64,000 bases of DNA from an uncultured bacterium. Lineage in GTDB: Bacteria; Vulcanimicrobiota; CADAWZ01. The notes beneath the pieces were generated by a model. The model saw only the letters and a program-made list of their open reading frames with translations, ran no database searches and was not told the origin of the DNA. Positions 321 to 50,892 of the stretch are shown piece by piece. The stretch is from NCBI GenBank assembly GCA_902790465.1, contig CADASF010000005.1, positions 70,039 through 134,038 of the forward strand. The letters are read 5' to 3'. A program made the translations under genes and the position numbers. Within the stretch, counting starts at the first letter, position 1; each line of letters begins with the position of its first letter.

Positions 321-342
321 AATAAAAGGAGAATTTTATAAG

Positions 343-8092: not shown

Positions 8093-8268
8093 TTATTTTT
8101 TAAAATCAAATAGCAAAACGAGTTAAATTTAAATTTATAAATACAATTTCTAAGATTTGTACCGCACAAAAGTTGCTATTGGAAAGTTTAACATGCTCTA
8201 TTATTGTTCAATTTGACTTGACGACTTAATAATAAAATTTAAAGAATTTGGAGAAGAATAAAAAAAAA

Positions 8269-19336: not shown

Positions 19337-19536
19337 AAAAAGGGGCTGTGAAAAAAATATTTTTTTCACAGCCTTTTTTTTATATAATCTTCGTAAATTA
19401 ACTCGTTGTGCTAAATGCAAAAAAACAAGTAAATAAAAGTTGCTATAAACTATCCAATATATGCCTGTATACTGCCACTTTGTCATTGCGAGGGAGCTGT
19501 GCGACCGTGGCATTTACTTTTTTCACAGCCCCTTTT
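19337..19536. repeat. MITE-like element, full-length copy C (about 200 bp). Its terminal inverted repeats (AAAGGGGCTGTGAAAAAA) double as the terminator hairpin of the GAF gene.
   Basis: Left hairpin at 19344-19373. Internal core is identical to copies A and B. The right end, ttttttcacagcccc, is the reverse complement of the left end. Confidence 0.65.
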
Positions 19537-23889: not shown

Positions 23890-25341
23890 ATGAATAAAAT
23901 ATTTAATTTTTTTCGAAATATGAGATGGAAACTCTTTTTGAGTTATTTTATTCTTGTCCTTTTTAATATATCTCTTTTGGGTTTCCTCTTTTATTTATTT
24001 ACAATGGGACATTTTATGTCAACAAGAGAATCATATCTTGAAACAGCTTCTGATTATTTTGTCAAATTTGTAACAGCAAATATGGAAAATGATGGACAGC
24101 TTATCGGAACATCAAAATTTTTTCTCAGACAAAATTGGGAAAAAATGGATTATGAACTCATTGTTTATGATAGGTCTAATCTAATTATAGCGGATTCTCG
24201 TTCACTTGATGAACAGATGGGAATTTTTTCAATGAATTCCAAGGGAGATGAAAAAATATTATCTGTTTTAAAGACTGGACGTCCTTTGTGTTGGAAGATA
24301 AAAAAAGACAGTTCTAATTTTATTTATTATGCTTGTCCTATTTTTTTTGAAACCAAAATTATTGGTGCAGTAAAAATAGGGATGACAACAGATGATTTTA
24401 ATGCTTTATTTGACATATTTAAAGATTACTTTCTTATAACTTTTATTCTGTCATTGATAGCTGCTTTGGGGCTTGCATTTATATTTGTAAGAAATATAAT
24501 GAAACCTGTCATGAAAATAAGAGATATTGCCTCAGAAATTTCACAGGGTAAATTTGAAAGCAGAGTAAATTATGATGCTATGGATGAATTGGGAGACCTA
24601 AGCAGAACGATAAATAAAATGGCAGAAGATTTAAATAAATTGGAAGAGACAAGAAATTTATTTCTTGCAAATATCTCCCATGAATTGAAAACTCCTCTTA
24701 CTATTATAAAAGGATTTGCACTGACAATGGAAGGCGATCCAGAAATAAGAGAAGATCAAAAGCATTTTCTTGAAACAATAAATAAAGAAGCAGATAGACT
24801 TACAAGGCTTGTAAATGAACTCCTTGAGTTAAGCAGATTGAAAACCAAGAAAACAGTTATGAAAATTGCTCCTTTTGATGTAAAAGAAATAATTGAAGAT
24901 GTTGTTTTCAATATGCAGACTAAGGCAGATAAATTTAACTGCACTATTTCTTGTTCATGTCCTGATAAACTTCCGCTTGTTCCTATCGATCCTGATAAAA
25001 TACATGAAGTTTTTATAAACTTGATTGACAATGCAATAAAATATTCACAAGGACATAAAGAAAAGCCTGAAGTAAAAGTTTTTGTTGAGACAACAGAAAA
25101 AGAACTCGTTGTAAAAGTCAGTGATAATGGTCCTGGAATACCACAAGCAGATTTGGATTTGATTTTTGAGAAATTCTTTAGGAGTGGAAGTAGATCGCAA
25201 AAAATCGAAGGTGTCGGTCTTGGGCTTTCAATCGTAAAAGAAATTGTAAATGCACATAATGGAAAAATATATGCCGAAAGCACAGAAGGTCAAGGCTGTA
25301 CTTTCGTAGTCAAATTGCCGTTACAACAACCCAAAAAGTAA
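23890..25341 (+). CDS. Sensor histidine kinase (2 TM, HAMP, HisKA, HATPase_c)
   Basis: H-box ISHELKTPLT. N, G1 and G2 boxes (DNAIKYS, DNGPGIP, GVGLGLSIV). Confidence 0.9.
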   Translation: MNKIFNFFRNMRWKLFLSYFILVLFNISLLGFLFYLFTMGHFMSTRESYLETASDYFVKFVTANMENDGQLIGTSKFFLRQNWEKMDYELIVYDRSNLIIADSRSLDEQMGIFSMNSKGDEKILSVLKTGRPLCWKIKKDSSNFIYYACPIFFETKIIGAVKIGMTTDDFNALFDIFKDYFLITFILSLIAALGLAFIFVRNIMKPVMKIRDIASEISQGKFESRVNYDAMDELGDLSRTINKMAEDLNKLEETRNLFLANISHELKTPLTIIKGFALTMEGDPEIREDQKHFLETINKEADRLTRLVNELLELSRLKTKKTVMKIAPFDVKEIIEDVVFNMQTKADKFNCTISCSCPDKLPLVPIDPDKIHEVFINLIDNAIKYSQGHKEKPEVKVFVETTEKELVVKVSDNGPGIPQADLDLIFEKFFRSGSRSQKIEGVGLGLSIVKEIVNAHNGKIYAESTEGQGCTFVVKLPLQQPKK

Positions 25342-25352
25342 CATCAAAAAAT

Positions 25353-25410
25353 GGGCTGTGAAAAAAGTAAATAGAATAGATGTCATTGTATCTAGCAACT
25401 TTTTATTTAC
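25353..25410. repeat. MITE-like element, internally deleted copy D (inverted), directly after the HK stop at the boundary of the module array
   Basis: gggctgtgaaaaaagtaaat is the reverse complement of 19511-19530. agcaactttttatttac is the reverse complement of 19431-19447. Confidence 0.55.
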
Positions 25411-25444
25411 ATACTTTTTTGCACATACACTATTATTATAAACG

Positions 25445-25483
25445 AACCTCGGTGCTTGAAATGATTTTCAACACCGAGGTTTT
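25445..25483. terminator. Conserved-loop hairpin H1 (CCTCGGTG-cttgaaatgattttcaa-CACCGAGG)
   Basis: Perfect inverted repeat with a flanking T run. One of 5 related copies. Confidence 0.7.
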
Positions 25484-25485
25484 AG

Positions 25486-26187
25486 TTATTTTTCACGCAT
25501 TGGCTTACAGACCAATTTATTATTTCTTGCCTCTTTATTTATAGTTCCAGAGGCATCTTTATAAATTTCTGGAATAAAAAAATATTTTGTGTTGTGAGCA
25601 TCTATTGTCATTCTGTGAGAATCCATTATTTTACGGATATTCTCAGGTAATTGATCAAAATGTATGGGATTTGTTGGATTATTTATCTTTTTATAATGAT
25701 AAGGATGATTTTTAAAATCACTTCTATCTATATTTTCTTCTTTTACTTTTAAGGTGCGGACTTGTAAACCTTGTTTTTTATTGTGTCGTTTAGTTTTTTT
25801 CTTAAATTCGATTCTATCAATATCCAAAGGTTTTATTTCTTCATAATATTCATCAATAAAAAAATAACAAAAAATATTATTTTCTTCAATCTCTACCGCA
25901 GAAAACTCACCTTGAAGAACAAATTTTGAAAAATAATCATATAAAATTTCTGACTCTGTATAGCTTTTTATGACAAATTCTGGAACATGCCAACTGTTAG
26001 TTGTACAACAAAAAATATACCCAAATTTATCTATTGCAAACCACCTAGAACCAATAACAGAGAGTTCTCCAGGTGTGATCCTATCTGTATGTGCTTCTAA
26101 TTTTGAAGCTCTATAAGTTTCATCTGGTAAATTCTCTGATGTATCTATTTCACTAAATCCATTACTCTTATTTTTCTTTTTAGTCAT
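25486..26187 (-). CDS. Partner/putative immunity protein ImmA
   Basis: 233 aa. WFAIDKFGYIFCCTT and HPYHYKK..IHFDQLPENIRKIMDSHRM motifs. RBS GAGAGG. Confidence 0.6.
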   Translation of the reverse strand: MTKKKNKSNGFSEIDTSENLPDETYRASKLEAHTDRITPGELSVIGSRWFAIDKFGYIFCCTTNSWHVPEFVIKSYTESEILYDYFSKFVLQGEFSAVEIEENNIFCYFFIDEYYEEIKPLDIDRIEFKKKTKRHNKKQGLQVRTLKVKEENIDRSDFKNHPYHYKKINNPTNPIHFDQLPENIRKIMDSHRMTIDAHNTKYFFIPEIYKDASGTINKEARNNKLVCKPMREK

Positions 26188-26311
26188 TTAAACCTCTCAA
26201 AAAAATATTAAAATATATTTTTCAAGAAAATATATATAATACCTTTGCATAAAAAAATAACTTGCTTTTATACAAAACAAGCTATTTTTTATGGTAAAAA
26301 TCAATAAATTT

Positions 26312-27001
26312 TTAAATATTTATAGGAATTTTAGTAGTACATTCACTTTCTCTTTTTAGAAGATGGGGAATATTTTGAAACATTCTTCGGCAAGTAGAAC
26401 AATATGGAGTATATCCCAATTTACCTTCCTCTTTATAACGAAATGCTATTGTCAATCTGATATCTCTAATATCACTACCCATATTTAAAAGAGCATTTAC
26501 TGCTCTAAATTCTGCACAACACCCTACTCTACTATTTGTACCGTCAATATATTCATTTATCTTACCTACATTTTTAGCAAGGTCTTTTACGATTTTATTA
26601 GTTCTTGGATATAAAGTTTTATGAATAAGTCTTGGAGGATAAGAATCTGAGACATCTACTTTTATATATCCTTTTTTTATATCATAGGCACCTACAAAAA
26701 CTTTTTTCTTTACTTTGTCTCCAATAAGACTTTTTACCTCATAGTAAAGTTTTCTTATTTGCTTAAAAATAATCTGCTCGTAAAACTTATTTTCGTTCCG
26801 TTCAAGTAAACATTCATACTCTGAATAAGTATATGCAGATATTTTACCTTCCACATATGCCTTAGATAAATAATCTAATATCCTATATTCATATTTTTTT
26901 ACGATATTTTCAATATCCATATTTACTTCAGGTAAATAATCAAAATCATCATACCCTGAATTGTCAAAATTTTCAAAATCATAAAAATCAAAATCGTTCA
27001 T
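26312..27001 (-). CDS. Deaminase-fold (CDA-like zinc motif) protein DeamA, putative toxin/effector
   Basis: GCCAEFRAVNALL ... TPYCSTCRRMF resembles CAER(x)A(I/V)...PCxxC of tetrameric cytidine deaminases. Confidence 0.6.
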   Translation of the reverse strand: MNDFDFYDFENFDNSGYDDFDYLPEVNMDIENIVKKYEYRILDYLSKAYVEGKISAYTYSEYECLLERNENKFYEQIIFKQIRKLYYEVKSLIGDKVKKKVFVGAYDIKKGYIKVDVSDSYPPRLIHKTLYPRTNKIVKDLAKNVGKINEYIDGTNSRVGCCAEFRAVNALLNMGSDIRDIRLTIAFRYKEEGKLGYTPYCSTCRRMFQNIPHLLKRESECTTKIPINI

Positions 27002-27090
27002 TTTAACTTTACCTGACTTTCAAAATATTCAAAAAGCGCTTTTCGTTAATGTGATTATATCAAAATAAAATAATAATGTCGTTGTCTAAA

Positions 27091-27109
27091 AGTTGCAAAA
27101 AAGTTGCAT
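27091..27109. promoter_or_regulatory. Direct-repeat operator-like motif AGTTGCAAAAAAGTTGCAT in a divergent promoter region
   Basis: The same AGTTGYA-N4/5-AGTTGCA motif is found at 29120-29149, 32100-32119, 33472-33502 and 36096-36114. Confidence 0.5.
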
Positions 27110-27168
27110 AAGGTAGTATTTTGTTTGTGTGAATTAATGATTTTACAAAATTTACAAACTGTGATATA

Positions 27169-27807
27169 ATGCAAATTGCGTATAAATCACAAAAATATTT
27201 TATTAAAGAGGTTGTAATAATGTCTGTTAGTAGAGTGAAAACTTATATTGCTGCGGATTGGGATCATGATAAGGATTTTATAAAAATATTAAAAAAAATA
27301 TTAAAAGAAATTATGTTAGAAGAAAATTCTAAAGGTAAAGATTTAAAAAAATATTTTACCGATATACATGAAAAAATACAGATAAGTGATAACAATCCTT
27401 ATTGTATCATAAAAAAATCTTTAGATAAAAGACTTAAGATGTCAAAAGTATTCATTTTAATTGTTGGAAAACATACAAATAAGCTAAAAAAGGGAATATG
27501 TAGCTTTTGCAAACATTATAATAAAAAAAGAAAGACATGCTCTATTGGCAATGATGTTGATAAGCGGAGTTATATAAAATATGAATGTTATGAAGCTATT
27601 GACAAGGAGTTAAAAATAATCGTAATTTATAAAAATTATGATGTAGATAGAAAGAAATGTCCTAAAATTTTGAGAGAGGAAGGAACTCATATTCCTGCTT
27701 ATACTTTAACAAAAAAATCCACTCAATCAATTAAAATAGATAAGAACAAATTTTTAAATTTTCCTGAAATTGTAACTGAAATAGTGGGAGCATTGTACAC
27801 AGATTAA
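27169..27807 (+). CDS. Conserved Cys-rich hypothetical protein, copy 1 (TIR-like/flavodoxin-like fold suspected)
   Basis: VKTYIAADWDHDKD N-terminal strand plus acidic loop. Cys cluster PYC..GICSFC..KTC..YEC..KKC. About 85% identical to copies at 32221 and 36175. Start possibly at 27220. Confidence 0.5.
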   Translation: MQIAYKSQKYFIKEVVIMSVSRVKTYIAADWDHDKDFIKILKKILKEIMLEENSKGKDLKKYFTDIHEKIQISDNNPYCIIKKSLDKRLKMSKVFILIVGKHTNKLKKGICSFCKHYNKKRKTCSIGNDVDKRSYIKYECYEAIDKELKIIVIYKNYDVDRKKCPKILREEGTHIPAYTLTKKSTQSIKIDKNKFLNFPEIVTEIVGALYTD

Positions 27808-27809
27808 TA

Positions 27810-27968
27810 TACAGAGGTCAAGTCATTCCAAAAGATGACTTGGTAACAGTCAGAGTTTGGGTAACCTCAAAATCAAATGATGACAAAACGATAATTTGTG
27901 ACGGTTGGTTGTCAGTAGATGGTCGAAATATCTACAAATTCTCCAACTTCGCACTAAAGATGATGTAA
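27810..27968 (+). pseudogene. FabA/FabZ-like (hotdog) C-terminal gene fragment
   Basis: ...TIICDGWLSVDGRNIYKFSNFALKMM* resembles the FabA C-terminus ...[23 protein letters not shown]. A degraded second copy is at 36790-36967. Confidence 0.35.
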
Positions 27969-28039
27969 CAGCTTATTAGTAAATAAAAAAGGCTCAGTAC
28001 TGAATTAATATCACTGAGCCTTTTTGGGGATTGGTTACT

Positions 28040-28516
28040 TTAATCTATTTTAATATTTCCTGACCAACTCTCACAAAACTCTTTATAAGCCTGATCAACA
28101 TTCATATAAACATCATGAAAAACATCTATGTCTACTCTGTGTGAGTTCATAATTTCTTGAATATTTTTTGGAAGTTGATTAAAATTCAAAGGATTTTTTG
28201 GAGAAAATTTTACAGATTTCTTATACCAATATGGATATTTAATAAAATCCTCACTTTTTGGGATTGTTTCAACTATGGCATCAAAATAGAATAAGCCTTT
28301 GCTTGCAAGAACTTCGTCGTTATCAAAATCGTCTTCATCTATTCCCAAAGTTGTGAAAAAATATTTTTCTAAAAATTCTGTTTCTTCCTTGCTTTTACAT
28401 ACAAATTCTGGAACTTTATGACTTCCTGCAGTTGTACAAGCAAAAAGAAAACCATTTTTATCAGTGCCGAACCAAAGTATGTCTTCTGTCAGAACTTCAC
28501 CTTTAGTAATTCTCAT
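28040..28516 (-). CDS. Partner/putative immunity protein ImmB
   Basis: 158 aa with family motifs WFGTDKNGFLFACTTAGSHKVPEF and YPYWYKK..LNFNQLPKNIQEIMNSHR. 4-nt gap to DeamB. RBS AAGGAGG. Confidence 0.6.
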   Translation of the reverse strand: MRITKGEVLTEDILWFGTDKNGFLFACTTAGSHKVPEFVCKSKEETEFLEKYFFTTLGIDEDDFDNDEVLASKGLFYFDAIVETIPKSEDFIKYPYWYKKSVKFSPKNPLNFNQLPKNIQEIMNSHRVDIDVFHDVYMNVDQAYKEFCESWSGNIKID

Positions 28517-28520
28517 GTTT

Positions 28521-29036
28521 TTAATCCTCCTTATCTAATATATCCTTAAACATATATTTACAATTAGGACAATAAGGTACTAATAATAATCCTTCTTTTC
28601 GAAATCTATATGCTTTAGTTAACATAAACTCTCCCATAGAATAACCTTTTTTCAACATTTTATTAACTAAACGAAATTCAGCACATTTTCCAACAATATT
28701 TTCATGTTTAGCAGGATCATTAGTAGGATTAGAAGTAAGACCAGTAGAACCTATTCCACCAATATCTTTTGCTAAGTTCACTAAATATTCGTCAATATCT
28801 TCTGGAAAATCTCCTGAATAATCAACATCAAAATTTCCAATTTTATCATAGCAACCAACATATGCTCCCTTTTTTTTATGTATTTTCATTATTCTTTTTA
28901 TTTCTTCTAAAGCATTGTTTTTAGCTACTTTACAGTTAAAATCAATATCTTCATTTTCATAGTCTTCAATTATATAGCCAGTATTCCTAAGTTCAAACCA
29001 TCTTGCTTCTATGATATGTCTAATACCTTCTAACAT
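28521..29036 (-). CDS. Deaminase-fold protein DeamB
   Basis: GKCAEFRLVNKMLKKG ... VPYCPNCKYMF. RBS AAAGGAG. Confidence 0.6.
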   Translation of the reverse strand: MLEGIRHIIEARWFELRNTGYIIEDYENEDIDFNCKVAKNNALEEIKRIMKIHKKKGAYVGCYDKIGNFDVDYSGDFPEDIDEYLVNLAKDIGGIGSTGLTSNPTNDPAKHENIVGKCAEFRLVNKMLKKGYSMGEFMLTKAYRFRKEGLLLVPYCPNCKYMFKDILDKED

Positions 29037-29069
29037 AATAAACTCCTTTAAATATGGTTTAATTATTTA

Positions 29070-29083
29070 AAAGAGCGCTCTTT
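29070..29083. promoter_or_regulatory. Leader palindrome AAAGAGCGCTCTTT just downstream of the TGATATAAT -10 box of DeamB (minus strand)
   Basis: Perfect 14-bp palindrome. Analogous palindromes at 27030-27045, 32038-32053 and 36034-36049. Confidence 0.5.
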
Positions 29084-29480
29084 ATTGAGATTAATTATAT
29101 CATAGCAAAATAAATTTGTAGTTGTTGTAATAGTTGCAAAAAGTTGCATTTAAAATTTTAGAATCTTGACAAATTATGTTATAATATTAATTGTGTAATA
29201 TTTCACAAATATTTTTTAAAGAAGAAAACAATGTTTATGTTTTTAATTTTTACTCTTGCATGTTTTATTAAAAAATTGAAAGAAAACTGTAATGTAAAAA
29301 AAAGTAATGAAGATTTCATTCGGGATTTTTTTACACAAATTTTTAAAGATATATCTTTAGATGATATAAAAGTTAGAAAAAAAGAAGAAAGATTTTAATA
29401 ATAAAAACGATGTTTTTATTTTAGGATTATATTTAGATAAATCTACAATTAGCAAATTACGAAATAATAAAATAAATATT

Positions 29481-30509
29481 TTGAAAGACCTAAAAAATAA
29501 AATATTTGATAAAAATAATAAGGATAAGATAAGTTTAAATATGGATGAATTTATTAAAGATAACATGGAATTAGCATCAATAGATAATTTAATTGAGAAA
29601 TTAAAATCTGCAATTTTAGAAGTAAAATTAACTGAAACAGAAAAAGAAAGTATTAAAAATTTTAAAATAGAAAAATATGAAGAGAAAATAAATTTTATAT
29701 ATGAAGCATTTAGAATTGCTTTAAACAAAGATAATAAACTAAAAGAAAATTCTAATTCTTTAATTTGGAAAAGAGGAAACGCTTTAGTAAATGCAATAAC
29801 TGGAGATATATTTAGCTATGGATTTAATAAAAGAAGTGAAGAGAAAAATATTGTTGTAATTCCAGTAGATACATCTTTTGAAACTCATATTACAACAAAA
29901 TTAGAAAAAGAAAAATATCCACTTGTTTCTGAAAATACAATTCACGGACAATTTCTTTCAAGAATGTACAAAACTACAGTCAAAAAAAATCCACCCCCAA
30001 AAAATGATATAGAAAGTAAGCGTAAAAGACATTATACTGAAGAAGATATTAAAAATTCAATAGAAGAATCCTTAACACTCCAAGGAATTAAGCCTTTAGG
30101 AAATAATTCTAAAAATAATCCTCTTTATCCAATTGGAACAATTGCTGTTATTGGTCATGATCTTGATACTATTGACACTATTTTTTATCTTTTAGCAATA
30201 TCACAATTTGATGAAAATAATAACGCTCAAAGCAATGAAAACAATATAAAAATAGCTATAGAAAATCTTTTAGATTTTTATAATAACAAGGGGCAAGAAT
30301 ATTCTCTATACTTGCCATTAATAGGTACAGGATTATCACGAGTTAATTTCACTAATAAGGAATCACTCGAATTTATTTTATCCACTATGATGGAAAATAA
30401 AGATAAAATACATGGAAAAATAAATATTGTTATTTCAAAAACAATACAACAACAGGAATTAGAAGAATTATATAAAGTTATTTCTGAATGGAAGAATAAA
30501 TATAAATAA
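29481..30509 (+). CDS. Macro-domain-like protein, copy 1 (apparently N-terminally disrupted relative to copy 2)
   Basis: NIVVIPVDTSFETH and LYLPLIGTGLSRV resemble macro motifs (IVNAANssL / AFPAISTGiyG). TTG start. The N-terminal homology is carried by a separate 55-aa ORF at 29232-29399. Confidence 0.4.
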   Translation: MKDLKNKIFDKNNKDKISLNMDEFIKDNMELASIDNLIEKLKSAILEVKLTETEKESIKNFKIEKYEEKINFIYEAFRIALNKDNKLKENSNSLIWKRGNALVNAITGDIFSYGFNKRSEEKNIVVIPVDTSFETHITTKLEKEKYPLVSENTIHGQFLSRMYKTTVKKNPPPKNDIESKRKRHYTEEDIKNSIEESLTLQGIKPLGNNSKNNPLYPIGTIAVIGHDLDTIDTIFYLLAISQFDENNNAQSNENNIKIAIENLLDFYNNKGQEYSLYLPLIGTGLSRVNFTNKESLEFILSTMMENKDKIHGKINIVISKTIQQQELEELYKVISEWKNKYK

Positions 30510-30514
30510 AGTAA

Positions 30515-30553
30515 AAACCTCGGTGCTGAAATGATTTTCAACACCGAGGTTTT
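30515..30553. terminator. Conserved-loop hairpin H2
   Basis: aaaacctcggtg ctgaaatgattttcaa caccgaggtttt. Confidence 0.7.
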
Positions 30554-30556
30554 TAC

Positions 30557-31261
30557 TTATCTTTCACGCATTGGCTTACAGACCAATTTATTATTTCGTG
30601 CCTCTTTATTTATAGTTCCAGATACATCTTTATAAATTTCTGGTATAAAAAAATATTTTGTATTGTGAGCATCTATTGTCATTCTGTGAGAATCCATTAT
30701 TTTGCGGATATTCTCAGGAAGTTGATCAAAATGTATGGGATTTGTCGGATTATTTATTTTTTTATAATGATAAGGATGATTTTTAAAATCACTTCTATCA
30801 ATATTTTCTTCTTTTAATTTTGAGACACGGACTTGTAAACCTTGTTTTTTATTATGTCGTTTCGTTTTTTTCTTAAATTCACTTCTATCAGTATCTAATG
30901 ATTTTATAAATTCAAAATAATATTCATCAATCAATTCATAACAAAAAATATTATTTTCTTCAATCTCTACCTCAGAGAACTCACCTTGAAGAACAAATTT
31001 TGAAAAATAATCATATAAAATTTCTGACTCTGTATAGCTTTTTATAAAAAAAACAGGAACATGCCAAGTTTTAGTATAACAACAAACAATATAACCAAAT
31101 TTATCTATAGCAAACCACATAGAGCCAAAAATAGTGAGTTCTCTTGGTGTTATTCTATCTGTATTTGCTTCTAATTTTGAAACTCTATAAGCTTCATCTT
31201 GTAAATTCTCTGATGTATCTATTTCACTAAATACATTGTTCTTATTTTTTTTCTTACTCAT
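30557..31261 (-). CDS. Partner/putative immunity protein ImmA' (about 88% identical to ImmA)
   Basis: 234 aa; same motifs as ImmA. Confidence 0.6.
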   Translation of the reverse strand: MSKKKNKNNVFSEIDTSENLQDEAYRVSKLEANTDRITPRELTIFGSMWFAIDKFGYIVCCYTKTWHVPVFFIKSYTESEILYDYFSKFVLQGEFSEVEIEENNIFCYELIDEYYFEFIKSLDTDRSEFKKKTKRHNKKQGLQVRVSKLKEENIDRSDFKNHPYHYKKINNPTNPIHFDQLPENIRKIMDSHRMTIDAHNTKYFFIPEIYKDVSGTINKEARNNKLVCKPMRER

Positions 31262-31341
31262 TTAACTCTCCTCTAAATAAGGAATAGCATATAATTTTCC
31301 ACACAATATATGCTATTCCCTGTTTTTATTCTATTTAGTTA

Positions 31342-32007
31342 TTAAAGTTCTATTTCTGTATCAGTACATTCACTTTCTCTTTTTAGGAGATGTGGATATT
31401 CTTGAAACATTTTCTGACAATTTTTACAATATGAAATAGCCACTAACTTACCGCTATCATACTGAAATGGTCTTGTGAATCTGATATCTTTAATATTACT
31501 ACCCATATTTAAAAGACCATTTATTGCTCTAAATTCTGCACAACAAGCAACAACATTGCTTCCTTGAATATGCTCATTTATCTTACCAACTTTTTTAGAA
31601 AGATCTTTTAAAATCTTATTAATTCTTGGACGAGCTTGTTCAATTTTATTAATTCTTGGAGGATAAGAATCTGAGCAATCTACTTTTATATATCCCTTTT
31701 TTTTATCATAAGCCCCTATATAAGCTTTTTTATTAGCTTCCTTACTTCCTTCAATATCCTTTACTTCCTTGTAAAGTTTTCTTATTTTTCCAAAAATAAT
31801 CTGCTCGTAAAACCTATTTTCGTCTCGTTCAAGTAAACATTCATACTTTGAATAAGTATATGCAGATATTTTACCTTCCATATATGCCTTAGATAAATCA
31901 TCTAATATCCTATATTCAAATTTTTTTACAATATTTTCAATATCCATACAGGCAGGTAAAGGTTCTAAATCCCAATACCCTGAATTGTCAAAATTAAAGT
32001 TTTCCAC
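31342..32007 (-). CDS. Deaminase-fold protein DeamA' (about 65-70% identical to DeamA)
   Basis: ACCAEFRAINGLLNMG ... SYCKNCQKMF. Start reassigned to the GTG at 32007, preceded by the GGAGGTGAAATTAAA leader identical to DeamC. The ORF-track TTG at 32040 lies inside the leader palindrome. Confidence 0.55.
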   Translation of the reverse strand: MENFNFDNSGYWDLEPLPACMDIENIVKKFEYRILDDLSKAYMEGKISAYTYSKYECLLERDENRFYEQIIFGKIRKLYKEVKDIEGSKEANKKAYIGAYDKKKGYIKVDCSDSYPPRINKIEQARPRINKILKDLSKKVGKINEHIQGSNVVACCAEFRAINGLLNMGSNIKDIRFTRPFQYDSGKLVAISYCKNCQKMFQEYPHLLKRESECTDTEIEL

Positions 32008-32220
32008 TTTAATTTCACCTCCATTTTTTAAAATATTCAAAGAGCACTCTTTGTTGAAATTATTATATCAAAGTAAAATAAATCCGTCGTTGTCTAAGAA
32101 GTTGTAAAATAGTTGCATAAGGTTGTATTTTTTGCGTTAGTTAATGATTTTACAAAATAATTGTGATATAATGCAAATTGCGTATAAATTACAAAAATAT
32201 AATTAAAGGGGGGGGGAATA

Positions 32221-32808
32221 ATGTCTGCTCGTAGAGTGAAAACTTATATTGCTGGTGATTGGGATCATGATAAGGATTTGATAGATATATTAAAAAATAT
32301 ATTAAAAGAAATTATGTTAGAAGAAAATTCTAATGGTAAAGATTTAAAATCATATTTTACCGATATACATGAGAAAATACAAATAAGTGATAACAACCCT
32401 TATTGTATTATAAAAAAATCTTTAGATGAAAGATTTGAATTGTCAAAACTATTTATTTTAATTGTTGGCGAACATACAAATAAACTAACAAAGGGAATAT
32501 GTAGTTTTTGCAAAGATTATAATAAACATAATAAGACTTGTTCTCTTAATAATAAAATTGACAAAAAAAGTTATATAAAATATGAATGTGATAAAGCTTT
32601 TGAAAATGACTTAAAAATCATTGTAATTTATAAAGATTATAATGTTGAGGAAAAAAAATGTCCTGAAATTTTGAGAGAGGAAGGAACTCATATTCCTGCT
32701 TATACTTTAACAAAAAAATCCCCTCAATCAATTAAAATAGATAAGGACAAATTTTTAAATTTTCCTGAAATTGTAACTGAAATAGTGGGAGCATTGTACA
32801 CAGATTGA
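32221..32808 (+). CDS. Conserved Cys-rich hypothetical protein, copy 2 (TIR-like?)
   Basis: MSARRVKTYIAGDWDHDKD. Promoter ttgtgatataatgc (extended -10) 45 nt upstream. Confidence 0.5.
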   Translation: MSARRVKTYIAGDWDHDKDLIDILKNILKEIMLEENSNGKDLKSYFTDIHEKIQISDNNPYCIIKKSLDERFELSKLFILIVGEHTNKLTKGICSFCKDYNKHNKTCSLNNKIDKKSYIKYECDKAFENDLKIIVIYKDYNVEEKKCPEILREEGTHIPAYTLTKKSPQSIKIDKDKFLNFPEIVTEIVGALYTD

Positions 32809-32848
32809 TAAAAATGGTGCTGTGATCAATAAATTCCCCCCATTTTTG

Positions 32849-33245
32849 AAAACAGTCATGAAGATAAGAGATATTGCCTCTGAAATTTCTCTTGGTAAAT
32901 TTGAAAGTAGATTTAATTATGAGGTCATGGACGAATTAGAATGCCATAAAATATTCACAAGGACATAAAGAAAAGCCAGAAGTCAAAGTAAATGTTGAAT
33001 TAGCAGAGAAAGAACTTATTGTAAAAGTAAGTGATAATGGACCAGGTATTCCACAAGCTGATTTGGATTTGATTTTTGAAAAGTTCTTTAGAAGTGGAAG
33101 TAGATCGCAAAAAATTGAAGGTGTAGGTCTTGGTCTTTCAATAGTTAAGGAAATTGTAAATGCTCATGACGGCAAAATATATGCAGAAAGTCCAGAGGGG
33201 CAAGGTTGCACTTTCGTAGTCAAACTGCCACTAAAGGCAAAATAA
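32849..33245 (+). pseudogene. Truncated duplicate of the 3' end of the histidine-kinase gene (internal deletion)
   Basis: ...KTVMKIRDIASEISLGKFESRFNYEVMDEL joined to ...KYSQGHKEKPEVKVNVELAEKELIVKVSDNGPGIPQADLDLIFEKFFRSGSRSQKIEGVGLGLSIVKEIVNAHDGKIYAESPEGQGCTFVVKLPL. Corresponds to HK residues about 205-235 and 375-483. Confidence 0.85.
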
Positions 33246-33260
33246 ATCTTTTGGAAAACT

Positions 33261-33300
33261 AAAAACCTCGGTGAAAAGTAATTTCCACCGAGGTTTTTTT
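33261..33300. terminator. Conserved-stem hairpin H3 (variant loop)
   Basis: aaaaacctcggtg aaaagtaatttc caccgaggttttttt. Confidence 0.7.
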
Positions 33301-33599
33301 GTGAGTAAATCTTTCTTAAAAGCTAAATTCTATGATGTTGCTTTAAATTTTTTAAAATTTTCTATAGGGTGTTTTGGTAAAGTGTTTTTGCATATTTAAA
33401 ATTTGCTATAAACTATCTGTATATTACCATTTTATCTTGGCTAGGCTAATTAGTAGTTTAAAACACACTTTAGTTGTAGAAAAAGTTGCAAAAAACTTGC
33501 ATTTTGTTTTTTATGATTCTACAATATTTACAAAATTTCCAAATTGTGCAATAATTCAAATAGTGTACTATTACACAATTATTTTTTAGGAGGAAAAAA

Positions 33600-34844
33600 A
33601 TGTTCATTTTTTATACTTTTGCATGTTTCATTAGAAGTTTAATGGATAATTGGAATGTACAACCATACCAAGAAAAAATTATAAATAGCTTATTTAAAGC
33701 ATATATAGGGGATAAGAATTATAATGATTCATATTATTTACAGCCAGAAACAGTTAGTAAAGTTATGAAGAATAGTATAAACCTTCCAAATTTTGTAAAA
33801 GGAATAACTTCTGATGAAGACTATGATACAAAAATTTATTCTGCTATGTATAATTTTATTTTAGAAAATATTAATTCAATAGATAATTTAATTGATGAAT
33901 TAAAATCTGCTATTTTAGAAGCAGAAAATTTAAGTGAAACAGAAAAAGAAACTATTAAAAATTTAAAAACAGAAAAAAAAGAAGATAAAATAAATTTCAT
34001 ATGTGAAGCATTTAGAATTGCTTTAAAAAATGATAATAAACTAAAGATAGACCATAATTTAATTTGGAGAGGAAAAAATTCAGTAAATGCAATAATTGGA
34101 GATTTATTTAGCTATGGATTTAATAAAAGAAGAGAATGCAAAAATATTGTTGTAATTCCAGTTGATACATCTTTTGAAACCCATATTACAACAAAATTAG
34201 AAAAAGAAAAATATCCACTTGTTTCTGAAAAAACAATTCACGGAAAATTTCTTTCAAGGATGTATAAAATTACTGTAAAAAAAGAACCTCTACTAAAAAA
34301 TGATACGGAAAGTAAGCGTAAGAGATGTTATACTGAAGAAGGTATTAAAAATTTAATAGAAAACAACTTAAAAGAACAAGGAATCGAGCCTTCAGGAAAT
34401 AATTCTAAAAATAAGCCTCTATATCCAATTGGAACAATTGCTGTTATTTATCATCTTAATACCATTTTTTATCTTTTAGCTATATCAGAATTTGATGAAA
34501 ATAATAATGCTCAAAGTAATGAAAAAAATATAAAAATAGCAATAGAAAATCTTTTGGAATTTTATGATAAAAAAGGGCAAGGGTATTCTTTGTATCTGCC
34601 ATTAATAGGAACAGGATTATCACGAGTTCGTTCATCATCTGAAAAAATATCCAAAATGTCCCCCTCAATAGTTTGTTTATCTCCTAAAGAATCCTTTGAA
34701 TGTATTTTATCTACAATTATGGAAAAAACAGATAAGATATTAGGAGAAATAAATATTGTTATTTGGAAAGAAATACACCCAGAGCATTTGGAAGAGATAA
34801 ATTTATTTTTGAATACACTCAGAAAATCTGAAAAATTAAAATAA
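33600..34844 (+). CDS. Macro-domain-like protein, copy 2 (full length, 414 aa)
   Basis: NIVVIPVDTSFETHITT and LYLPLIGTGLSRV. About 75% identical to copy 1 with two indels. Confidence 0.45.
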   Translation: MFIFYTFACFIRSLMDNWNVQPYQEKIINSLFKAYIGDKNYNDSYYLQPETVSKVMKNSINLPNFVKGITSDEDYDTKIYSAMYNFILENINSIDNLIDELKSAILEAENLSETEKETIKNLKTEKKEDKINFICEAFRIALKNDNKLKIDHNLIWRGKNSVNAIIGDLFSYGFNKRRECKNIVVIPVDTSFETHITTKLEKEKYPLVSEKTIHGKFLSRMYKITVKKEPLLKNDTESKRKRCYTEEGIKNLIENNLKEQGIEPSGNNSKNKPLYPIGTIAVIYHLNTIFYLLAISEFDENNNAQSNEKNIKIAIENLLEFYDKKGQGYSLYLPLIGTGLSRVRSSSEKISKMSPSIVCLSPKESFECILSTIMEKTDKILGEINIVIWKEIHPEHLEEINLFLNTLRKSEKLK

Positions 34845-34865
34845 TCAATCAATAATTTATTATAA

Positions 34866-34908
34866 ACAAACCTCGGTGCTGAAATGATTTTCAACAACGA
34901 GGTTTTTA
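34866..34908. terminator. Conserved-loop hairpin H4 (one stem mismatch)
   Basis: aaacctcggtg ctgaaatgattttcaa caacgaggttttt. Confidence 0.65.
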
Positions 34909-34928
34909 GTTAAAATAATATTATGATT

Positions 34929-35414
34929 TTACTCTTTATAAATAGGTGGAACAAAAAAATATTTTATTTGGCGAGAATCAATTTGAATTTTATGATAATT
35001 CATTATATTTTGAATATTTTTAGGAAGTTGATTAAAATGTAAAGGTTTTTTGGGGAATGTAAGTTTTTTATACCAATAGGGATGAATCTCAAAATCTTTT
35101 TCATTATCTATTGTCTCATATTTAATGATAGAATCAAAAGAACTAATGCCTCTATCTAAAAGAATGACATCTTCCTCACCTATTAAATCATAGTCTAATT
35201 CATAAGAAAATTTTTCTATTTTTATATCTAAATTTGAAAATTCAGAACTAAATAAAAAAAAATTTTCTAAAACGCAAGTATTTTCTTGGCTTTTACATAC
35301 AAATTCTGGAACATTAAATGTTCCTGCGGATGTACAAGAAAAAACATAGCCATTTTTATCAATAGCAAACCATCTAATATCATTACAGAAAAGGTCTTCT
35401 TCGCTAAATCTCAT
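34929..35414 (-). CDS. Partner/putative immunity protein ImmC
   Basis: 161 aa. WFAIDKNGYVFSCTSAGTFNVPEF and HPYWYKK..LHFNQLPKNIQNIMNYHK. 5-nt gap to DeamC. RBS AAGGAGG. Confidence 0.6.
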   Translation of the reverse strand: MRFSEEDLFCNDIRWFAIDKNGYVFSCTSAGTFNVPEFVCKSQENTCVLENFFLFSSEFSNLDIKIEKFSYELDYDLIGEEDVILLDRGISSFDSIIKYETIDNEKDFEIHPYWYKKLTFPKKPLHFNQLPKNIQNIMNYHKIQIDSRQIKYFFVPPIYKE

Positions 35415-35419
35415 CTTTA

Positions 35420-36001
35420 TTAATCCTCCTTTAGTATTTCCATTCCTTCAAACATTTTTAAGCAATTGGGACAATATGGCACTATATCCCAACCCCAATT
35501 TTTTATTCTAACTGCTTTAATTAATCTAATTGCTTCTATATTACTACCTTGCCATAGCAATTTATTGACTACATGGAATTCAGCACATCTACCAACTTTA
35601 TTAAAAGTATTTTTTTCTCCTGTAATTTTTAATTCTTTTTCAATTTTATTAGAAGTATCTGTTTCTTCTTTCCTTGTAATTTTTAATCCTTTATCTTTCA
35701 TAATTTTTTTTAATTCGTCATGAATATCTTTGTCTGCGGGTGGACTTCTTGAATAATCTGCACAAGCATTTCCAGTATCTATATCATATCCTCCAATATA
35801 AACAGCAGGATTTTCATATTTCATTTTTATTCCATTTTTTCTATTATTTTCTCTTATTTTTTTAAAATCATCTATTTTCTTGTTTATTTCTTCTTCAGCT
35901 TTTTTTTCGTATGTTGCATTTTCTGTTCGTTCTTGTATATATATATTGTCATAATTTTTATATAAAAGTATTGGGTATTTAAAATGTTTGAAATATTTCA
36001 T
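35420..36001 (-). CDS. Deaminase-fold protein DeamC
   Basis: GRCAEFHVVNKLLWQG ... VPYCPNCLKMF. RBS GGAGGTG 8 nt upstream. Confidence 0.6.
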   Translation of the reverse strand: MKYFKHFKYPILLYKNYDNIYIQERTENATYEKKAEEEINKKIDDFKKIRENNRKNGIKMKYENPAVYIGGYDIDTGNACADYSRSPPADKDIHDELKKIMKDKGLKITRKEETDTSNKIEKELKITGEKNTFNKVGRCAEFHVVNKLLWQGSNIEAIRLIKAVRIKNWGWDIVPYCPNCLKMFEGMEILKED

Positions 36002-36174
36002 TTTAATTTCACCTCCAATTTTTTTTTAATATTCAAAAAGCACTTTTCGTTGATGTTATTATATCAAAGTAAAATAAATCCGTCGTTGTCTAAGAAGTTG
36101 TAAAATAGTTGCATAAGGTTGTATTTTTTGCGTTAGTTAATGATTTTACAAAATAAATTGTGATATAATGCAAA

Positions 36175-36786
36175 TTGCGTATAAATTACAAAAATATAAT
36201 TAAAGGGGTTGTAAAAATGATTGTTGATAGAATAAAAACTTATATAGCTGGAGATTGGGATAACGATAAGGATTTTATAAAAATATTAAAAAAAATATTA
36301 AAAGGAATTATTTTAGAAGAAAATTATAAAGGTAAAGATTTTAAAAAAAAATTTACCGATATACATGAAAAAATACAGATAAGTGATGACAACCCTTATT
36401 GTATTATAAAAAAATCTTTAGATGAAAGATTTGAACGATCAAAACTATTTATTTTAATTGTTGGAAAACATACAAATAAGCTAAAAAAGGGAATATGTAG
36501 TTTTTGCAAACATTATAATAAAAAAAGAAAGACATGCTCTATTGATAATGATGTTGATAAGCGGAGCTATATAAAATATGAATGTGATAAAGCTTTTGAA
36601 AATGACTTAAAAATAATCGTAATTTATAAAGATTATAAGGTAGAAAGAAAAAAATGTCCTAAAATTTTGAGAGAGGAAGGAACTCATATTCCTGCTTATA
36701 CTTTAACAAAAAAATCCCCTCAATCAATTAAAATAGATAAGAACAAATTTTTAAATTTTCCTGAAATTGTAGCTGAAATAGCGTGA
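36175..36786 (+). CDS. Conserved Cys-rich hypothetical protein, copy 3 (TIR-like?). Premature stop relative to copies 1 and 2.
   Basis: MIVDRIKTYIAGDWDNDKD. Ends ...EIVAEIA*, 5 codons earlier than the other copies. Start probably at 36217. Confidence 0.45.
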   Translation: MRINYKNIIKGVVKMIVDRIKTYIAGDWDNDKDFIKILKKILKGIILEENYKGKDFKKKFTDIHEKIQISDDNPYCIIKKSLDERFERSKLFILIVGKHTNKLKKGICSFCKHYNKKRKTCSIDNDVDKRSYIKYECDKAFENDLKIIVIYKDYKVERKKCPKILREEGTHIPAYTLTKKSPQSIKIDKNKFLNFPEIVAEIA

Positions 36787-36789
36787 GCA

Positions 36790-36967
36790 TTGTACACAGA
36801 TTGATATACAGAGGTCAAGTCATTCCAAAAGATGACTTGGTAACAGTCAGAGTTTGGGTAACCTCAAAATCAAATGATGACAAAGTAATTATCTGTGACG
36901 GCTAGCTTTCTGTTGATAGCAGAAACATCTACAAATTCTCCAACTTTGCACTAAAAATGATGTAAAT
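36790..36967 (+). pseudogene. Degraded second copy of the FabA/FabZ-like fragment
   Basis: About 90% nucleotide identity to 27808-27968, with frame-disrupting indels. Confidence 0.3.
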
Positions 36968-36987
36968 GCGTGAAAGATAAACAACAA

Positions 36988-37024
36988 AAAAACTCGGTGC
37001 TGATACCAAACACCGAGTTTTTTT
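36988..37024. terminator. Hairpin H5 (CTCGGTG stem variant) between the module array and the phosphoesterase gene
   Basis: aaaaactcggtg ctgataccaaa caccgagttttttt. Confidence 0.65.
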
Positions 37025-37035
37025 GTTTTTGATTC

Positions 37036-48270: not shown

Positions 48271-50892
48271 ATGGATTTTTTGTATCAAATAGTAATTTAT
48301 CCAATTCAACTTTTTATTGAAATTATATATATAACTCTTTATCATGCTCTTGAACATGTAGCAGGACGAAGTGGATATGCAATAATAGGAGTAAGTCTTG
48401 CTGTTTCATTTTTGACACTTCCAATGTATGTAAAGGCTGAAAAACTTCAAGATATTCAAAGAGATATTTTGAAGAAAATGGAAAAAAAGTTGGAGTCAAT
48501 AAAACGCAATTTTAAAGGTGATAAGAAATATATGTTAATTTCAGCATATTACAAAAAAAATTCTTATCATCCTTTGATGGTTTTGCGTAGTTCTCTGAGT
48601 CTTTTTATTATGATTCCATTTTTCATGGCAGCATATATATTTCTTTCAGAGCCTCGTCTTTTATCTGGTGAATCATTTTTCTTTTTAACAGACTTATCTA
48701 AACAAGATCAATTAATAAATTTATTTGGCTTAAGACTAAATTTACTGCCAATTTTGATGACTGTTATAAATATTTTTTCTGGTTATATTTATTCTGAAAA
48801 ACTTTCAAAATCAGAAAGACTTCAGATTTATATAACATCTATTATTTTCTTATTCATTTTATATACTTCCCCATCAGGGCTTGTTTTTTATTGGACTTGT
48901 AATAATATATTTTCATTTTTTAAAAATATTTGGATTAAGTATAATTTTAAGATAGGTTTTAATATTAGCTTTATTTTAAATAGATTTGACAAACTTGAAA
49001 ATTTTAATACAGATAGTTGTTTTATTCTTTCTATGTTTTTATTTTGGCTTTTAATAGGACTTGTTATTCCAACAGATTTTATGTCATCTTCTTCACTTGA
49101 AATTTGTAAAATGTGCAGGGATATGTCTATTTGGAAGGTTTTATCATATCCTGTCTTGCAGTCTTTTGGAATATTTGTATTTTGGGGCATTTTAATTTTT
49201 TACCTTGCAGATAAAAAAATAAAGAATTTATTTACATTATTTTCTATTTCCACATTTATTTATAGTTTGATACAAATGTACCTATATCCTTATGGTTTAG
49301 CTGATTTTACTTTTAGATTTAGCCCATATATGTCAAAAACAACACCTGTAGTTTCTTGTTTATTGATAATAATTTACATATTTACATTATTTATTTTATA
49401 TAAAATATTTGTAAATAATAAAGAAAAAATTATATCATCTATTATGTCAATATTAATAATTGCCTGTCTAATGACTATTTTTGTAAATGTAAATAAGATA
49501 AATAATGGATATGTAAGATATAATGAAATTGTGTCAATTGACTTAAAAGATCAAATTAGTAACAATAAAATATTTAAATTCACAAAAACAGGAAAAAATG
49601 TTCTTATAATTTTTCTTGATAGAGCTATAAGTTCATTTTTTCCTCTTATAATGGAAAAAAATGAAAATTTAAAGAAATCTTATGAAGGTTTTATTTATTA
49701 TCCCAATACAGCCACTTTTTATTGTCATACCATTTTAGGTGCTCCACCAATATTTGGTGGTTATGAGTATACACCAATAGAGATGAATAAACGAAAGGGT
49801 CTTATGAAAGATAAACATAATGAAGCTCTTTTAGTATTACCTTCTATTTTTAAAAATAAAGGTGCTTATGTATGTGTTACAGATGCACCTTTAAAAAATT
49901 ATGAATGGATTTCAGATAATAAACTTTATAAAGAGAAAGGAATAAACGCTTATAATTTATTGGGATGTTATACAGAAAAGTTTTTAAAAGATAAATTAGA
50001 TATAACATTTTCGGATTCTTCACCTTCGGTTTTATTAAAACATGATTTTTTATTTTTTTCTTTTATGAAAATTTCAGACAGTGTAATAAGGCATATTTTA
50101 TATAATGATAAAAAATATTTAAATCCAATATATCTAAAAAAAAATAATATAATTTGTAATCCTGATAGGTTAATGATGCTGGATTCTTATTCAACTCTTT
50201 TAGAACTTAACAATTTATCTGATTTTACTTGTAAAGAAAATTTAACATTAAATATTATGATTAATAACTTGACACATGACATTGATTTTTTCCAATTACC
50301 AAAATATACTATTGAGAAAAAAGTGAACAATATTGGAATAAATTTTATAGGTAATAGAAAGTCTTTTCGTTTTTATCATGGAAATACTTCTTCATTGTAT
50401 AGACTTTCAGAATGGTTTGAAGAACTTAAAGCCAATGGAGTTTATGATAATACACGAATAATAATAGTTTCGGATCATGGATTTTCACTTGTAAATAATT
50501 ATTGTAAAAATGAAAGGGCAACATTTTTTAATGCATTATTAGTTGTAAAAGATTTTAATTCTAAAGGATATTATAAAATAGATGATACATTAATGACCAA
50601 TGCTGATGTTCCTTATATTGCAACTAAAGATGTTATAAATAATCCAATTAACCCATTTACAGGCAAATCTATTAATGAGTTTGATAAATCAAAAGGTATT
50701 AATGTATTGAATCAACATTTATATAATCCACAAGATTTTGATGGCGATAAATGTATTTTTCAAGATTATTATTTTCATATAAAAAATAGTGTGTTAAACA
50801 GCGATGACTGGAAAGTGGAATTGTTTTCATTAAATACGAATAGTAAAGAAAGTATATCAAATAATAGTTTATCCAATTCAACTTTTTATTGA
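48271..50892 (+). CDS. Membrane protein: N-terminal YidC/Oxa1-like insertase domain fused to multi-TM segment and C-terminal LtaS/sulfatase-like (alkaline-phosphatase superfamily) domain, paralog 1
   Basis: GYAIIGVSLAVSFLTLPMYVKAEK...KYMLISAYYKKNSYHPLMVLRSSLSLFIMIPFFMAAY resembles the YidC core. C-terminal VLIIFLDRA...IIVSDHG metal-site motifs. Confidence 0.6.
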   Translation: MDFLYQIVIYPIQLFIEIIYITLYHALEHVAGRSGYAIIGVSLAVSFLTLPMYVKAEKLQDIQRDILKKMEKKLESIKRNFKGDKKYMLISAYYKKNSYHPLMVLRSSLSLFIMIPFFMAAYIFLSEPRLLSGESFFFLTDLSKQDQLINLFGLRLNLLPILMTVINIFSGYIYSEKLSKSERLQIYITSIIFLFILYTSPSGLVFYWTCNNIFSFFKNIWIKYNFKIGFNISFILNRFDKLENFNTDSCFILSMFLFWLLIGLVIPTDFMSSSSLEICKMCRDMSIWKVLSYPVLQSFGIFVFWGILIFYLADKKIKNLFTLFSISTFIYSLIQMYLYPYGLADFTFRFSPYMSKTTPVVSCLLIIIYIFTLFILYKIFVNNKEKIISSIMSILIIACLMTIFVNVNKINNGYVRYNEIVSIDLKDQISNNKIFKFTKTGKNVLIIFLDRAISSFFPLIMEKNENLKKSYEGFIYYPNTATFYCHTILGAPPIFGGYEYTPIEMNKRKGLMKDKHNEALLVLPSIFKNKGAYVCVTDAPLKNYEWISDNKLYKEKGINAYNLLGCYTEKFLKDKLDITFSDSSPSVLLKHDFLFFSFMKISDSVIRHILYNDKKYLNPIYLKKNNIICNPDRLMMLDSYSTLLELNNLSDFTCKENLTLNIMINNLTHDIDFFQLPKYTIEKKVNNIGINFIGNRKSFRFYHGNTSSLYRLSEWFEELKANGVYDNTRIIIVSDHGFSLVNNYCKNERATFFNALLVVKDFNSKGYYKIDDTLMTNADVPYIATKDVINNPINPFTGKSINEFDKSKGINVLNQHLYNPQDFDGDKCIFQDYYFHIKNSVLNSDDWKVELFSLNTNSKESISNNSLSNSTFY

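Follow-up and report, generated by a model that had tools for sequence, protein, structure and literature searches.

Five copies of a two-gene pair occur in the stretch of DNA analysed here, 64,000 nucleotides (nt) of contig CADASF010000005.1 from an uncultured bacterium (hereafter the window). The first gene of each pair encodes a protein with the motifs C-A-E and C-x-x-C, which we call Deam, and the second encodes a protein that we call the partner. Each pair is probably a self-contained toxin-immunity module of polymorphic-toxin descent, independent of the Thoeris genes that lie beside four of the five pairs in a duplicated island. Deaminase toxin/immunity pairs are already known as a class; what is unusual in these copies is that the Deams stand alone and are co-amplified with Thoeris.

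In the mechanism that we propose, three Cys, one from C-A-E and two from C-x-x-C, would form the zinc site of Deam, with the Glu of C-A-E as the catalytic residue and proton shuttle. By analogy with YwqJ, the substrate would most likely be cytosine in nucleic acid, probably single-stranded DNA (ssDNA), and the reaction would be toxic and mutagenic. The partner, translated right behind Deam, would bind and neutralise its cognate Deam, and the two would diversify together into several specificities (A/A', B, C and X). The copies at 25.4-37.0 kb would have arisen by segmental duplication and recombination that also duplicated the neighbouring type II-like Thoeris genes, the outcome being a variable conflict island flanked by a histidine-kinase gene on one side and a metallophosphoesterase gene on the other.

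Deam and its relatives

Four pairs are complete (25486-36001) and one, at 1-846, is cut by the window edge. Their genes are:

3-320, plus strand: DeamX, the last 105 codons of a gene that the window edge truncates; GGCAEF and PYCDNC kept; matched to the other Deams by tblastn
343-846, plus strand: PartX, 167 amino acids (aa); 22 nt after the DeamX stop; Shine-Dalgarno AAGGAG
25486-26187, minus strand: PartA, 233 aa; 35-aa N-terminal extension; identical to protein P0006
26312-27001, minus strand: DeamA, 229 aa; CCAEF and YCSTC intact; weak Shine-Dalgarno
28040-28516, minus strand: PartB, 158 aa; AlphaFold2 (AF2) predicted local distance difference test (pLDDT) 90.4; no fold match
28521-29036, minus strand: DeamB, 171 aa; essentially the predicted toxin domain alone
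30557-31261, minus strand: PartA', 234 aa; 87% identical to PartA
31342-32007, minus strand: DeamA', 221 aa; GTG start at 32007 after GGAGG; protein P0001
34929-35414, minus strand: PartC, 161 aa; 5 nt after DeamC
35420-36001, minus strand: DeamC, 193 aa; Shine-Dalgarno GGAGG; 5 nt before PartC

When every copy was compared with the whole window by tblastn, exactly five loci were found for each family, the paralogues matching at E-values between 1e-4 and 1e-128. This upholds the five pairs of an earlier, sequence-only reading of the window, whose title, giving five copies plus one, overcounted by one; the open reading frame (ORF) coordinates that it gave for the pairs are all present. The motifs that it picked out are intact as well. 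C-A-E and C-x-x-C are invariant across the window copies that cover those columns, all five included, and the second motif reads YC(S/K/P/D)(T/N)C in 5/5. The Gly two residues before C-A-E is nearly invariant, with Ala in DeamA' (VACCAEF). The longest ORF of DeamA' has a TTG start at 32040, and L012 and L018 have, at the same EF-G locus, full-length orthologues of DeamX (245-304 aa).

The gap from Deam to partner is shortest in B (4 nt) and C (5 nt), which bears out the two closely spaced pairs of the earlier account; it is 22 nt in X, 80 nt in A' and 124 nt in A. Shine-Dalgarno sequences are strong on all Deam and partner genes except DeamA, which argues for independently translated genes. 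Deam also diverges faster than its partner, as had been claimed: amino-acid identity between A and A' is 68% for Deam and 87% for the partner (ratio of nonsynonymous to synonymous substitution rates, dN/dS, 0.66 and 0.26), and between B and C it is 37% and 51% (dN/dS 0.76 and 0.44).

Direct searches of Deam against Pfam, NCBIfam and PADLOC gave nothing significant, the best match being the Pfam family YwqJ-deaminase (E = 0.31), and neither the Deam profile nor the partner profile matched any PDB sequence. A word-indexed protein search found five Deam relatives; more came only when 1.84 billion representative proteins were scanned in full by HMMER with the Deam profile, which gave 237 relatives, many of them matching at the extreme C-terminus of a long protein. 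A Pfam scan that took in 147 of the 237, with a cut-off of E ≤ 0.001 for YwqJ-deaminase, returned YwqJ-deaminase (nine relatives), RHS_repeat (seven), PT-VENN (five), PT-HINT (three) and Fil_haemagg (two). YwqJ-deaminase was the sole toxin-domain or enzyme family in this set besides one Thioredoxin_4 match, and the relative P0058 reached 31.2 bits for it (PF14431). RHS_repeat, PT-VENN, PT-HINT and Fil_haemagg are trafficking or pre-toxin modules of polymorphic toxins.

Conserved in the family alignment are GAYD...G, VG.CAEF...N.L and C.NC..F, and the C-A-E core is invariant across its 23 sequences. In an AF2 model of DeamB (pLDDT 87.7), a long N-terminal helix is followed by strands 1 and 2, an insert of ~45 residues, helix 2, strand 3 and helix 3. 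C-A-E lies at the N-terminus of helix 2 (119-129) and C-x-x-C at the start of helix 3 (157-162), and the chain ends ~10 residues later. This order fits the description of the YwqJ clade (Iyer et al., 2011; PMC3239186), and it also agrees with a recent model of YwqJ, in which the N-terminal helix is extended and there are additional helices in the centre (PMC13648612, preprint). The same preprint showed experimentally that YwqJ is an ssDNA cytidine deaminase delivered via the type VIIb secretion system and neutralised by YwqK. Taking profiles and model together, we predict that Deam is a compact deaminase-fold toxin domain on a divergent branch of the YwqJ-like clade, in agreement with the deaminase fold proposed in the sequence-only reading.

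The likeness to YwqJ/YwqK of Bacillus subtilis (an LXG toxin of PF14431) extends to the motifs G-x-[C/H]-A-E and C-x-x-C, an insert ahead of helix 2 (in which DeamC alone keeps the conserved His), the extended N-terminal helix, the short C-terminus and an immunity gene directly downstream. The window Deams differ in scoring below the PF14431 threshold, so that transitive hidden Markov model (HMM) evidence places them in the same clade, and their partner has no relation to YwqK or to the clade's immunity proteins of the SUKH3 and Imm6 families (Iyer et al., 2011). We also considered a metabolic nucleoside deaminase and rejected it, since every multidomain relative is a toxin and metabolic genes would not show the pattern of a conserved downstream partner that also forms orphan arrays. 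None of the Deam relatives is encoded in any phage or plasmid record.

Some of the window Deams carry a lineage-specific, sometimes repeated, N-terminal motif (DYPPE..FDD.IL.E..ECLLER), and this region could be an adaptor-binding or regulatory one. The longer Deam paralogues of the lineage (L028, L012 3245-4159, P0055, P0058 and P0063) have one or two copies of it, as DYPPE(S/L)(M/L)FDD.IL.E..ECLLER, and a low-complexity KKYQQEI repeat occurs in some.

The partner family and its linkage to Deam

The partners share the motifs W(F/H)..DK.G, PY.YKK and QLP..I..IM, which are conserved as first described, and the family remains unrecognised, as it was on first inspection. It had no match in NCBIfam, PADLOC or PDB sequences, and none of 37 partner-family members matched an immunity family of Pfam (E ≤ 0.1), including Imm6, SUKH/SMI1-KNR4 and YwqK-type families. 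The partner model (pLDDT 90.4) matched nothing among PDB and BFVD structures, solved immunity proteins included. Pfam scans found no DNA-binding domain in the partner (helix-turn-helix, ribbon-helix-helix or AbrB), and among plasmid records there was a single partner relative.

The two families travel together. A partner gene follows Deam immediately and on the same strand in every fetched Deam-bearing locus (L010-L014, L018, L022, L027, L028, L034, L056, L057 and L059), and in unrelated taxa the linkage is kept at ~25% partner identity (L022). On two human-gut contigs, L056 and L057, Deam forms the last ~135 residues of RHS-repeat proteins of 2,242 and 2,261 aa. The L057 protein matches Pfam RHS_repeat (1e-55) and DUF6531, and has a core ending in ...DPSGH and a glycine-rich region before the tip. 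The partner ORF starts before the toxin stop codon, which is the arrangement canonical for RHS toxin and immunity genes. Behind another RHS-Deam relative, P0073, lies a 154-aa gene at 22 nt, a candidate partner. L027 and L059 carry tandem Deam/partner cassettes of the orphan type, which retain the pre-toxin glycine-rich region.

Partners also occur without a toxin. Four stand in tandem after groEL in the same lineage (L005-L008, with P0040 among them), L030 has a tandem of three, and many gut contigs contain a single copy. Neither a recombinase nor an integrase was observed next to the orphan arrays examined. On pTS2 of Treponema saccharophilum, a cultured rumen spirochaete, a partner homologue (WP_002705074.1, 40% identical, annotated as hypothetical) shares a gene row with immunity genes annotated as Imm19, SUKH-4 and SMI1/KNR4. 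These contexts, behind Deam, behind an RHS-Deam toxin, in toxin-less arrays and in the Treponema immunity row, argue that the partner is an immunity protein, and we assign it to a predicted, previously undescribed immunity family. The toxin/immunity relation suspected from the window thus gains support from Deam relatives that are C-terminal tips of RHS, CdiA and HINT toxins, from the partner gene behind Deam and from the orphan immunity arrays.

Two traits of polymorphic toxin systems can be compared directly. Cassette polymorphism with orphan immunity genes is found here, as several specificities per genome and as the arrays in L005-L008 and L030. A C-terminal toxin on a trafficking protein is absent from the window Deams and present in their RHS, PT-VENN/Fil_haemagg and PT-HINT homologues, and the statement that Deam has no trafficking domain accordingly holds for the window copies and fails for the family. 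Because of the orphan immunity arrays of the same lineage, and because the multidomain relatives are all exported toxins, we lean towards inter-bacterial antagonism and protection as the arena in which the pairs would act. The window resembles acquired interbacterial defence islands through the toxin-less arrays (L005-L008, L030) and the Treponema row, and differs from them in that each window partner is still paired with a toxin.

Three further observations concern the partners and their surroundings. Proteins of 251-283 aa in other taxa (L026, L027, L059 and P0023) join a partner domain to a C-terminal part of ~100-130 aa without a Pfam match, and look like two-domain immunity proteins. At the EF-G locus, a helical protein of 303-312 aa (L012 47-985, L013 2806-3717) precedes the Deam/partner pairs; an internal duplication gives it ...TGLYKE..FI....DE..YG...QREF twice, and it has no informative Pfam match. 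Near the groEL-linked orphan partner array is the gene for a 605-aa Ntox50-domain protein (L005 10631-12448, also in L006-L008), in which a trafficking module was not found and which adjoins a DNA methylase and a helix-turn-helix gene.

The island and its Thoeris genes

The complete pairs were described as an array. They are repeated and amplified, but not as a pure tandem: between them stand three ThsB and two ThsA genes of Thoeris and a histidine-kinase fragment, which the earlier account did not mention. With HK for histidine kinase and arrowheads for direction, the layout is HK> / <PartA <DeamA / ThsB> / <PartB <DeamB / ThsA> / <PartA' <DeamA' / ThsB> / HK-fragment / ThsA> / <PartC <DeamC / ThsB> / <metallophosphoesterase. 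The elements other than Deam and partner are:

25448-25478, unstranded: CTCGGTG/CACCGAG hairpin, between the histidine-kinase gene and PartA
27220-27807, plus strand: ThsB copy 1 (TIR); the ORF opens at 27169 and the 27220 start is supported by a Shine-Dalgarno; Pfam ThsB_TIR 5e-07, PADLOC ThsB 3.5e-46
29481-30509, plus strand: ThsA copy 1 (Macro), 342 aa; TTG start without a Shine-Dalgarno
30510-30557, unstranded: hairpin with a 20-bp stem, of bidirectional-terminator type, between ThsA copy 1 and PartA' (CTCGGTG/CACCGAG copy at 30519-30548)
32221-32808, plus strand: ThsB copy 2 (TIR); 82-83% amino-acid identity to the other ThsB copies
32847-33245, plus strand: duplicated 3' fragment of the histidine-kinase gene, between ThsB copy 2 and ThsA copy 2 (self-blastn 85-86%)
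33267-33292, unstranded: CTCGGTG/CACCGAG hairpin at an island module boundary
33600-34844, plus strand: ThsA copy 2 (Macro), full length, 414 aa; Pfam ThsA_Macro 2e-28, PADLOC ThsA 1.6e-48
36217-36786, plus strand: ThsB copy 3 (TIR); the ORF opens at TTG 36175
36983-37027, unstranded: terminator-like CTCGGTG...CACCGAG hairpin at the island's right end (arms 36993-37017)

Old segmental duplications built the island. Self-comparison aligned 25445-27809 with 30516-32810 (83%; a block of Part, Deam and ThsB), 26991-27968 with 35991-36965 (89%) and 29577-30790 with 33876-35096 (75%). Positions 32847-33229 of the histidine-kinase fragment match, at about 85%, stretches within the final ~800 bp of the complete kinase gene (24500-25319), and a 60-aa ORF at 33063-33245 resembles the C-terminus of the kinase. 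Lying between ThsB copy 2 and ThsA copy 2, this fragment is a scar, which indicates that the island grew by duplicating a chromosomal junction. The hairpin CTCGGTG...CACCGAG occurs four times in the window, solely at module boundaries of the island, where chance would give 0. It resembles a bidirectional terminator and may also mark recombination junctions.

The remainder of the window is ordinary chromosome, with EF-G, LepA, EF-Tu, MetRS, DnaK and tRNAs, and the GC content is 30%. No secretion-system gene was found among the 10 large flanking ORFs of the window that were scanned against Pfam. A scan of a genome collection with a narrow peptide pattern picked out two species-representative genomes, a ruminal 'Candidatus Xenobia' metagenome-assembled genome and an uncultured rumen genome, and the records matching the window proteins were metagenome assemblies and one NCBI record, with no others. 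The window itself may belong to Xenobia as well.

The Thoeris genes are type II-like (ThsB TIR with ThsA Macro), as the PADLOC matches indicate, and they depart from that type in having three ThsB and two ThsA copies, one of the latter truncated, and in a ThsA without a transmembrane segment. ThsA copy 1 is 84% identical to P0229 (421 aa) and about 80 aa shorter at the N-terminus; with this part missing and no Shine-Dalgarno, it is probably truncated and defective. ThsA copy 2 has no transmembrane segment, its maximum 19-residue hydropathy falling inside the Macro core, whereas the type II Thoeris effectors described so far are transmembrane-Macro ThsA proteins (PMC11204291). A soluble N-terminal part joined to a Macro domain is widespread among ThsA proteins, for example in Lachnospira multipara.

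Thoeris and the pairs also occur apart. A ThsA homologue with 46% identity lies in an ordinary, overlapping thsA-thsB operon that has neither Deam nor partner (L019/L020), and Deam/partner pairs without Thoeris are found at the EF-G locus (window 1-846; L012 and L018) and at L010, L022, L027, L056 and other loci. In L021, a close relative of the island, ThsB and ThsA are intact while PartB is truncated and DeamB is reduced to its 3' end. Co-occurrence was found at the locus of this lineage only (the window, L001, L021 and L023), and L001, from the same strain and 99.96% identical, is not independent evidence. With Thoeris found without pairs and pairs without Thoeris, the two look like independent modules, judged from these gene neighbourhoods, that were shuffled and amplified together.

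Alternative readings and wider context

Several observations weigh against polymorphic-toxin modules in the window. For PF14431 the best window Deam reaches 11.7 bits (E = 0.31) against a gathering threshold of 25.9; since relatives lie above the threshold and the window Deams below it, their YwqJ membership is transitive only and they form a divergent subfamily. DeamC and many relatives keep the His of the insert (I-H-x-x-L), but another residue takes its place in DeamA, A' and B. Every dN/dS comparison gave a value below 1, so that positive selection is not demonstrated, and the faster divergence of Deam could reflect relaxed constraint. Pfam finds no RHS, LXG, PT-VENN or HINT module in the window Deams; they have no signal peptide and no transmembrane segment, and they are without the glycine-zipper or glycine-rich translocation region of their RHS relatives. 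For Deams such as these, a delivery route to other cells would have to be found. A pre-toxin region shared by the Deam N-termini and the Ntox50 protein of the lineage was looked for and not found.

One alternative is an intracellular toxin-antitoxin or abortive-infection module, in which a domesticated RHS-type tip would serve as a cytoplasmic deaminase that the partner keeps in check. Deam would be freed when a phage infects or the island is lost, and would then edit phage or host nucleic acid, or addiction would stabilise the island. The window Deams are stand-alone and cytoplasmic-looking, have their own Shine-Dalgarno sequences and lack every trafficking and translocation element of the RHS relatives; they also sit in a defence island, interleaved and co-amplified with Thoeris. 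Deaminases are known as anti-phage effectors, for example AvcD (PMC10511110). AvcD/AvcI, a deaminase toxin that is inactive until phage infection, would be a functional analogue if Deam acted inside the cell, but AvcD acts on dCMP and dCTP, its antitoxin is an RNA, and it is not related to Deam or partner in sequence or architecture.

Other evidence, however, speaks against an intracellular role. The toxin gene comes first and the immunity gene second, which is not the usual order of type II toxin-antitoxin systems, and the Pfam scans showed no DNA-binding domain in the partner. PADLOC gives no Deam or partner match, and the identifiable multidomain relatives of Deam are all exported polymorphic toxins. 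The toxin-less partner arrays of the same lineage fit protection from incoming toxins better than an antitoxin, and so does the Treponema homologue among SUKH/Imm genes. We regard the intracellular reading as unlikely, though the strongest of the alternatives. The sequence-only reading had rated it at least as likely as a secreted toxin; the evidence now tilts towards a polymorphic-toxin origin, and probably function, and leaves the intracellular role a minor share. About as unlikely is a bolder version, in which the domesticated tip would be an APOBEC-like anti-phage or addiction module with an inhibitor of new fold, co-amplifying with Thoeris and, in its strongest form, acting as the missing effector of the non-membrane Macro-ThsA.

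The pairs might instead be a silent reservoir of orphan tip/immunity cassettes for recombination into a full-length toxin gene at another place in the genome, with only the immunity gene functionally expressed. Stand-alone cassettes are typical of polymorphic toxin loci (PMC3482391), and the orphan cassettes of L027 and L059 keep the pre-toxin glycine-rich region; DeamB has little beyond the toxin domain, and DeamA has a weak Shine-Dalgarno. Yet the window Deams have complete ORFs that begin at a start codon, the Shine-Dalgarno is strong in three of the four complete copies, and the catalytic motifs are intact in all. Their strand is opposite to that of the neighbouring genes, no large toxin gene lies upstream of them, and no pre-toxin homology region common to them and any long toxin was found. 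We consider a silent reservoir very improbable.

A four-gene system, in which a soluble Macro ThsA, on a signal made by the TIR protein, would displace the partner and free Deam as the killing effector, is the least credible of the readings and was rejected as the main explanation on the contexts of the ThsA homologues: the order ThsA> <Part <Deam ThsB> does occur twice, Part, Deam and ThsB were duplicated as one block, ThsA here lacks the transmembrane segment of the described proteins (PMC11204291) and L023 also has a ThsA adjoining a pair, but ThsA proteins without such a segment are common and form a two-gene operon with ThsB in L019/L020, the EF-G locus and other taxa have pairs but no Thoeris, L021 keeps intact Thoeris genes beside a decayed pair, and the Thoeris-linked cases all come from one lineage and locus.

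If the pairs are toxin-immunity modules, they add to the YwqJ-like deaminase toxins a divergent and very compact branch (about 170 aa), and a cognate inhibitor family that is absent from databases and whose confident model is unmatched among solved structures. Among known deaminase-tip toxins of the RHS/YD-repeat type, DddA/DddI and SsdA/SsdAI differ from the pairs in that the window Deams have no RHS shell, DPxGx cleavage site or glycine-rich translocation region, and DddA and SsdA share only 12-14% sequence identity with them. Small deaminase/inhibitor pairs are raw material for base editors, with DddA/DddI as the precedent, and four to five natural, mutually diverged toxin/inhibitor specificities in one genome would form a panel for work on substrate and specificity. 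The island would also be a case, from a rumen lineage about which little is known, of joint shuffling and amplification of toxin-immunity modules and Thoeris, and it raises the question of how stand-alone toxin tips without a trafficking module are delivered, if they are delivered at all.

Elsewhere in the window, 48271-50892 and 51062-53638 are tandem paralogues of 873 and 858 aa with 78% nucleotide identity, each with an N-terminal YidC/60KD_IMP insertase domain and an uncharacterised C-terminal part of ~640 aa. A type I restriction-modification HsdS gene (6643-8016) contains an internal direct repeat (6721-7080 and 7411-7770, 79.5%), and an inverted repeat of 108 nt with 86% identity lies at 8022-8129 and 19395-19498, the two arms ~11 kb apart.

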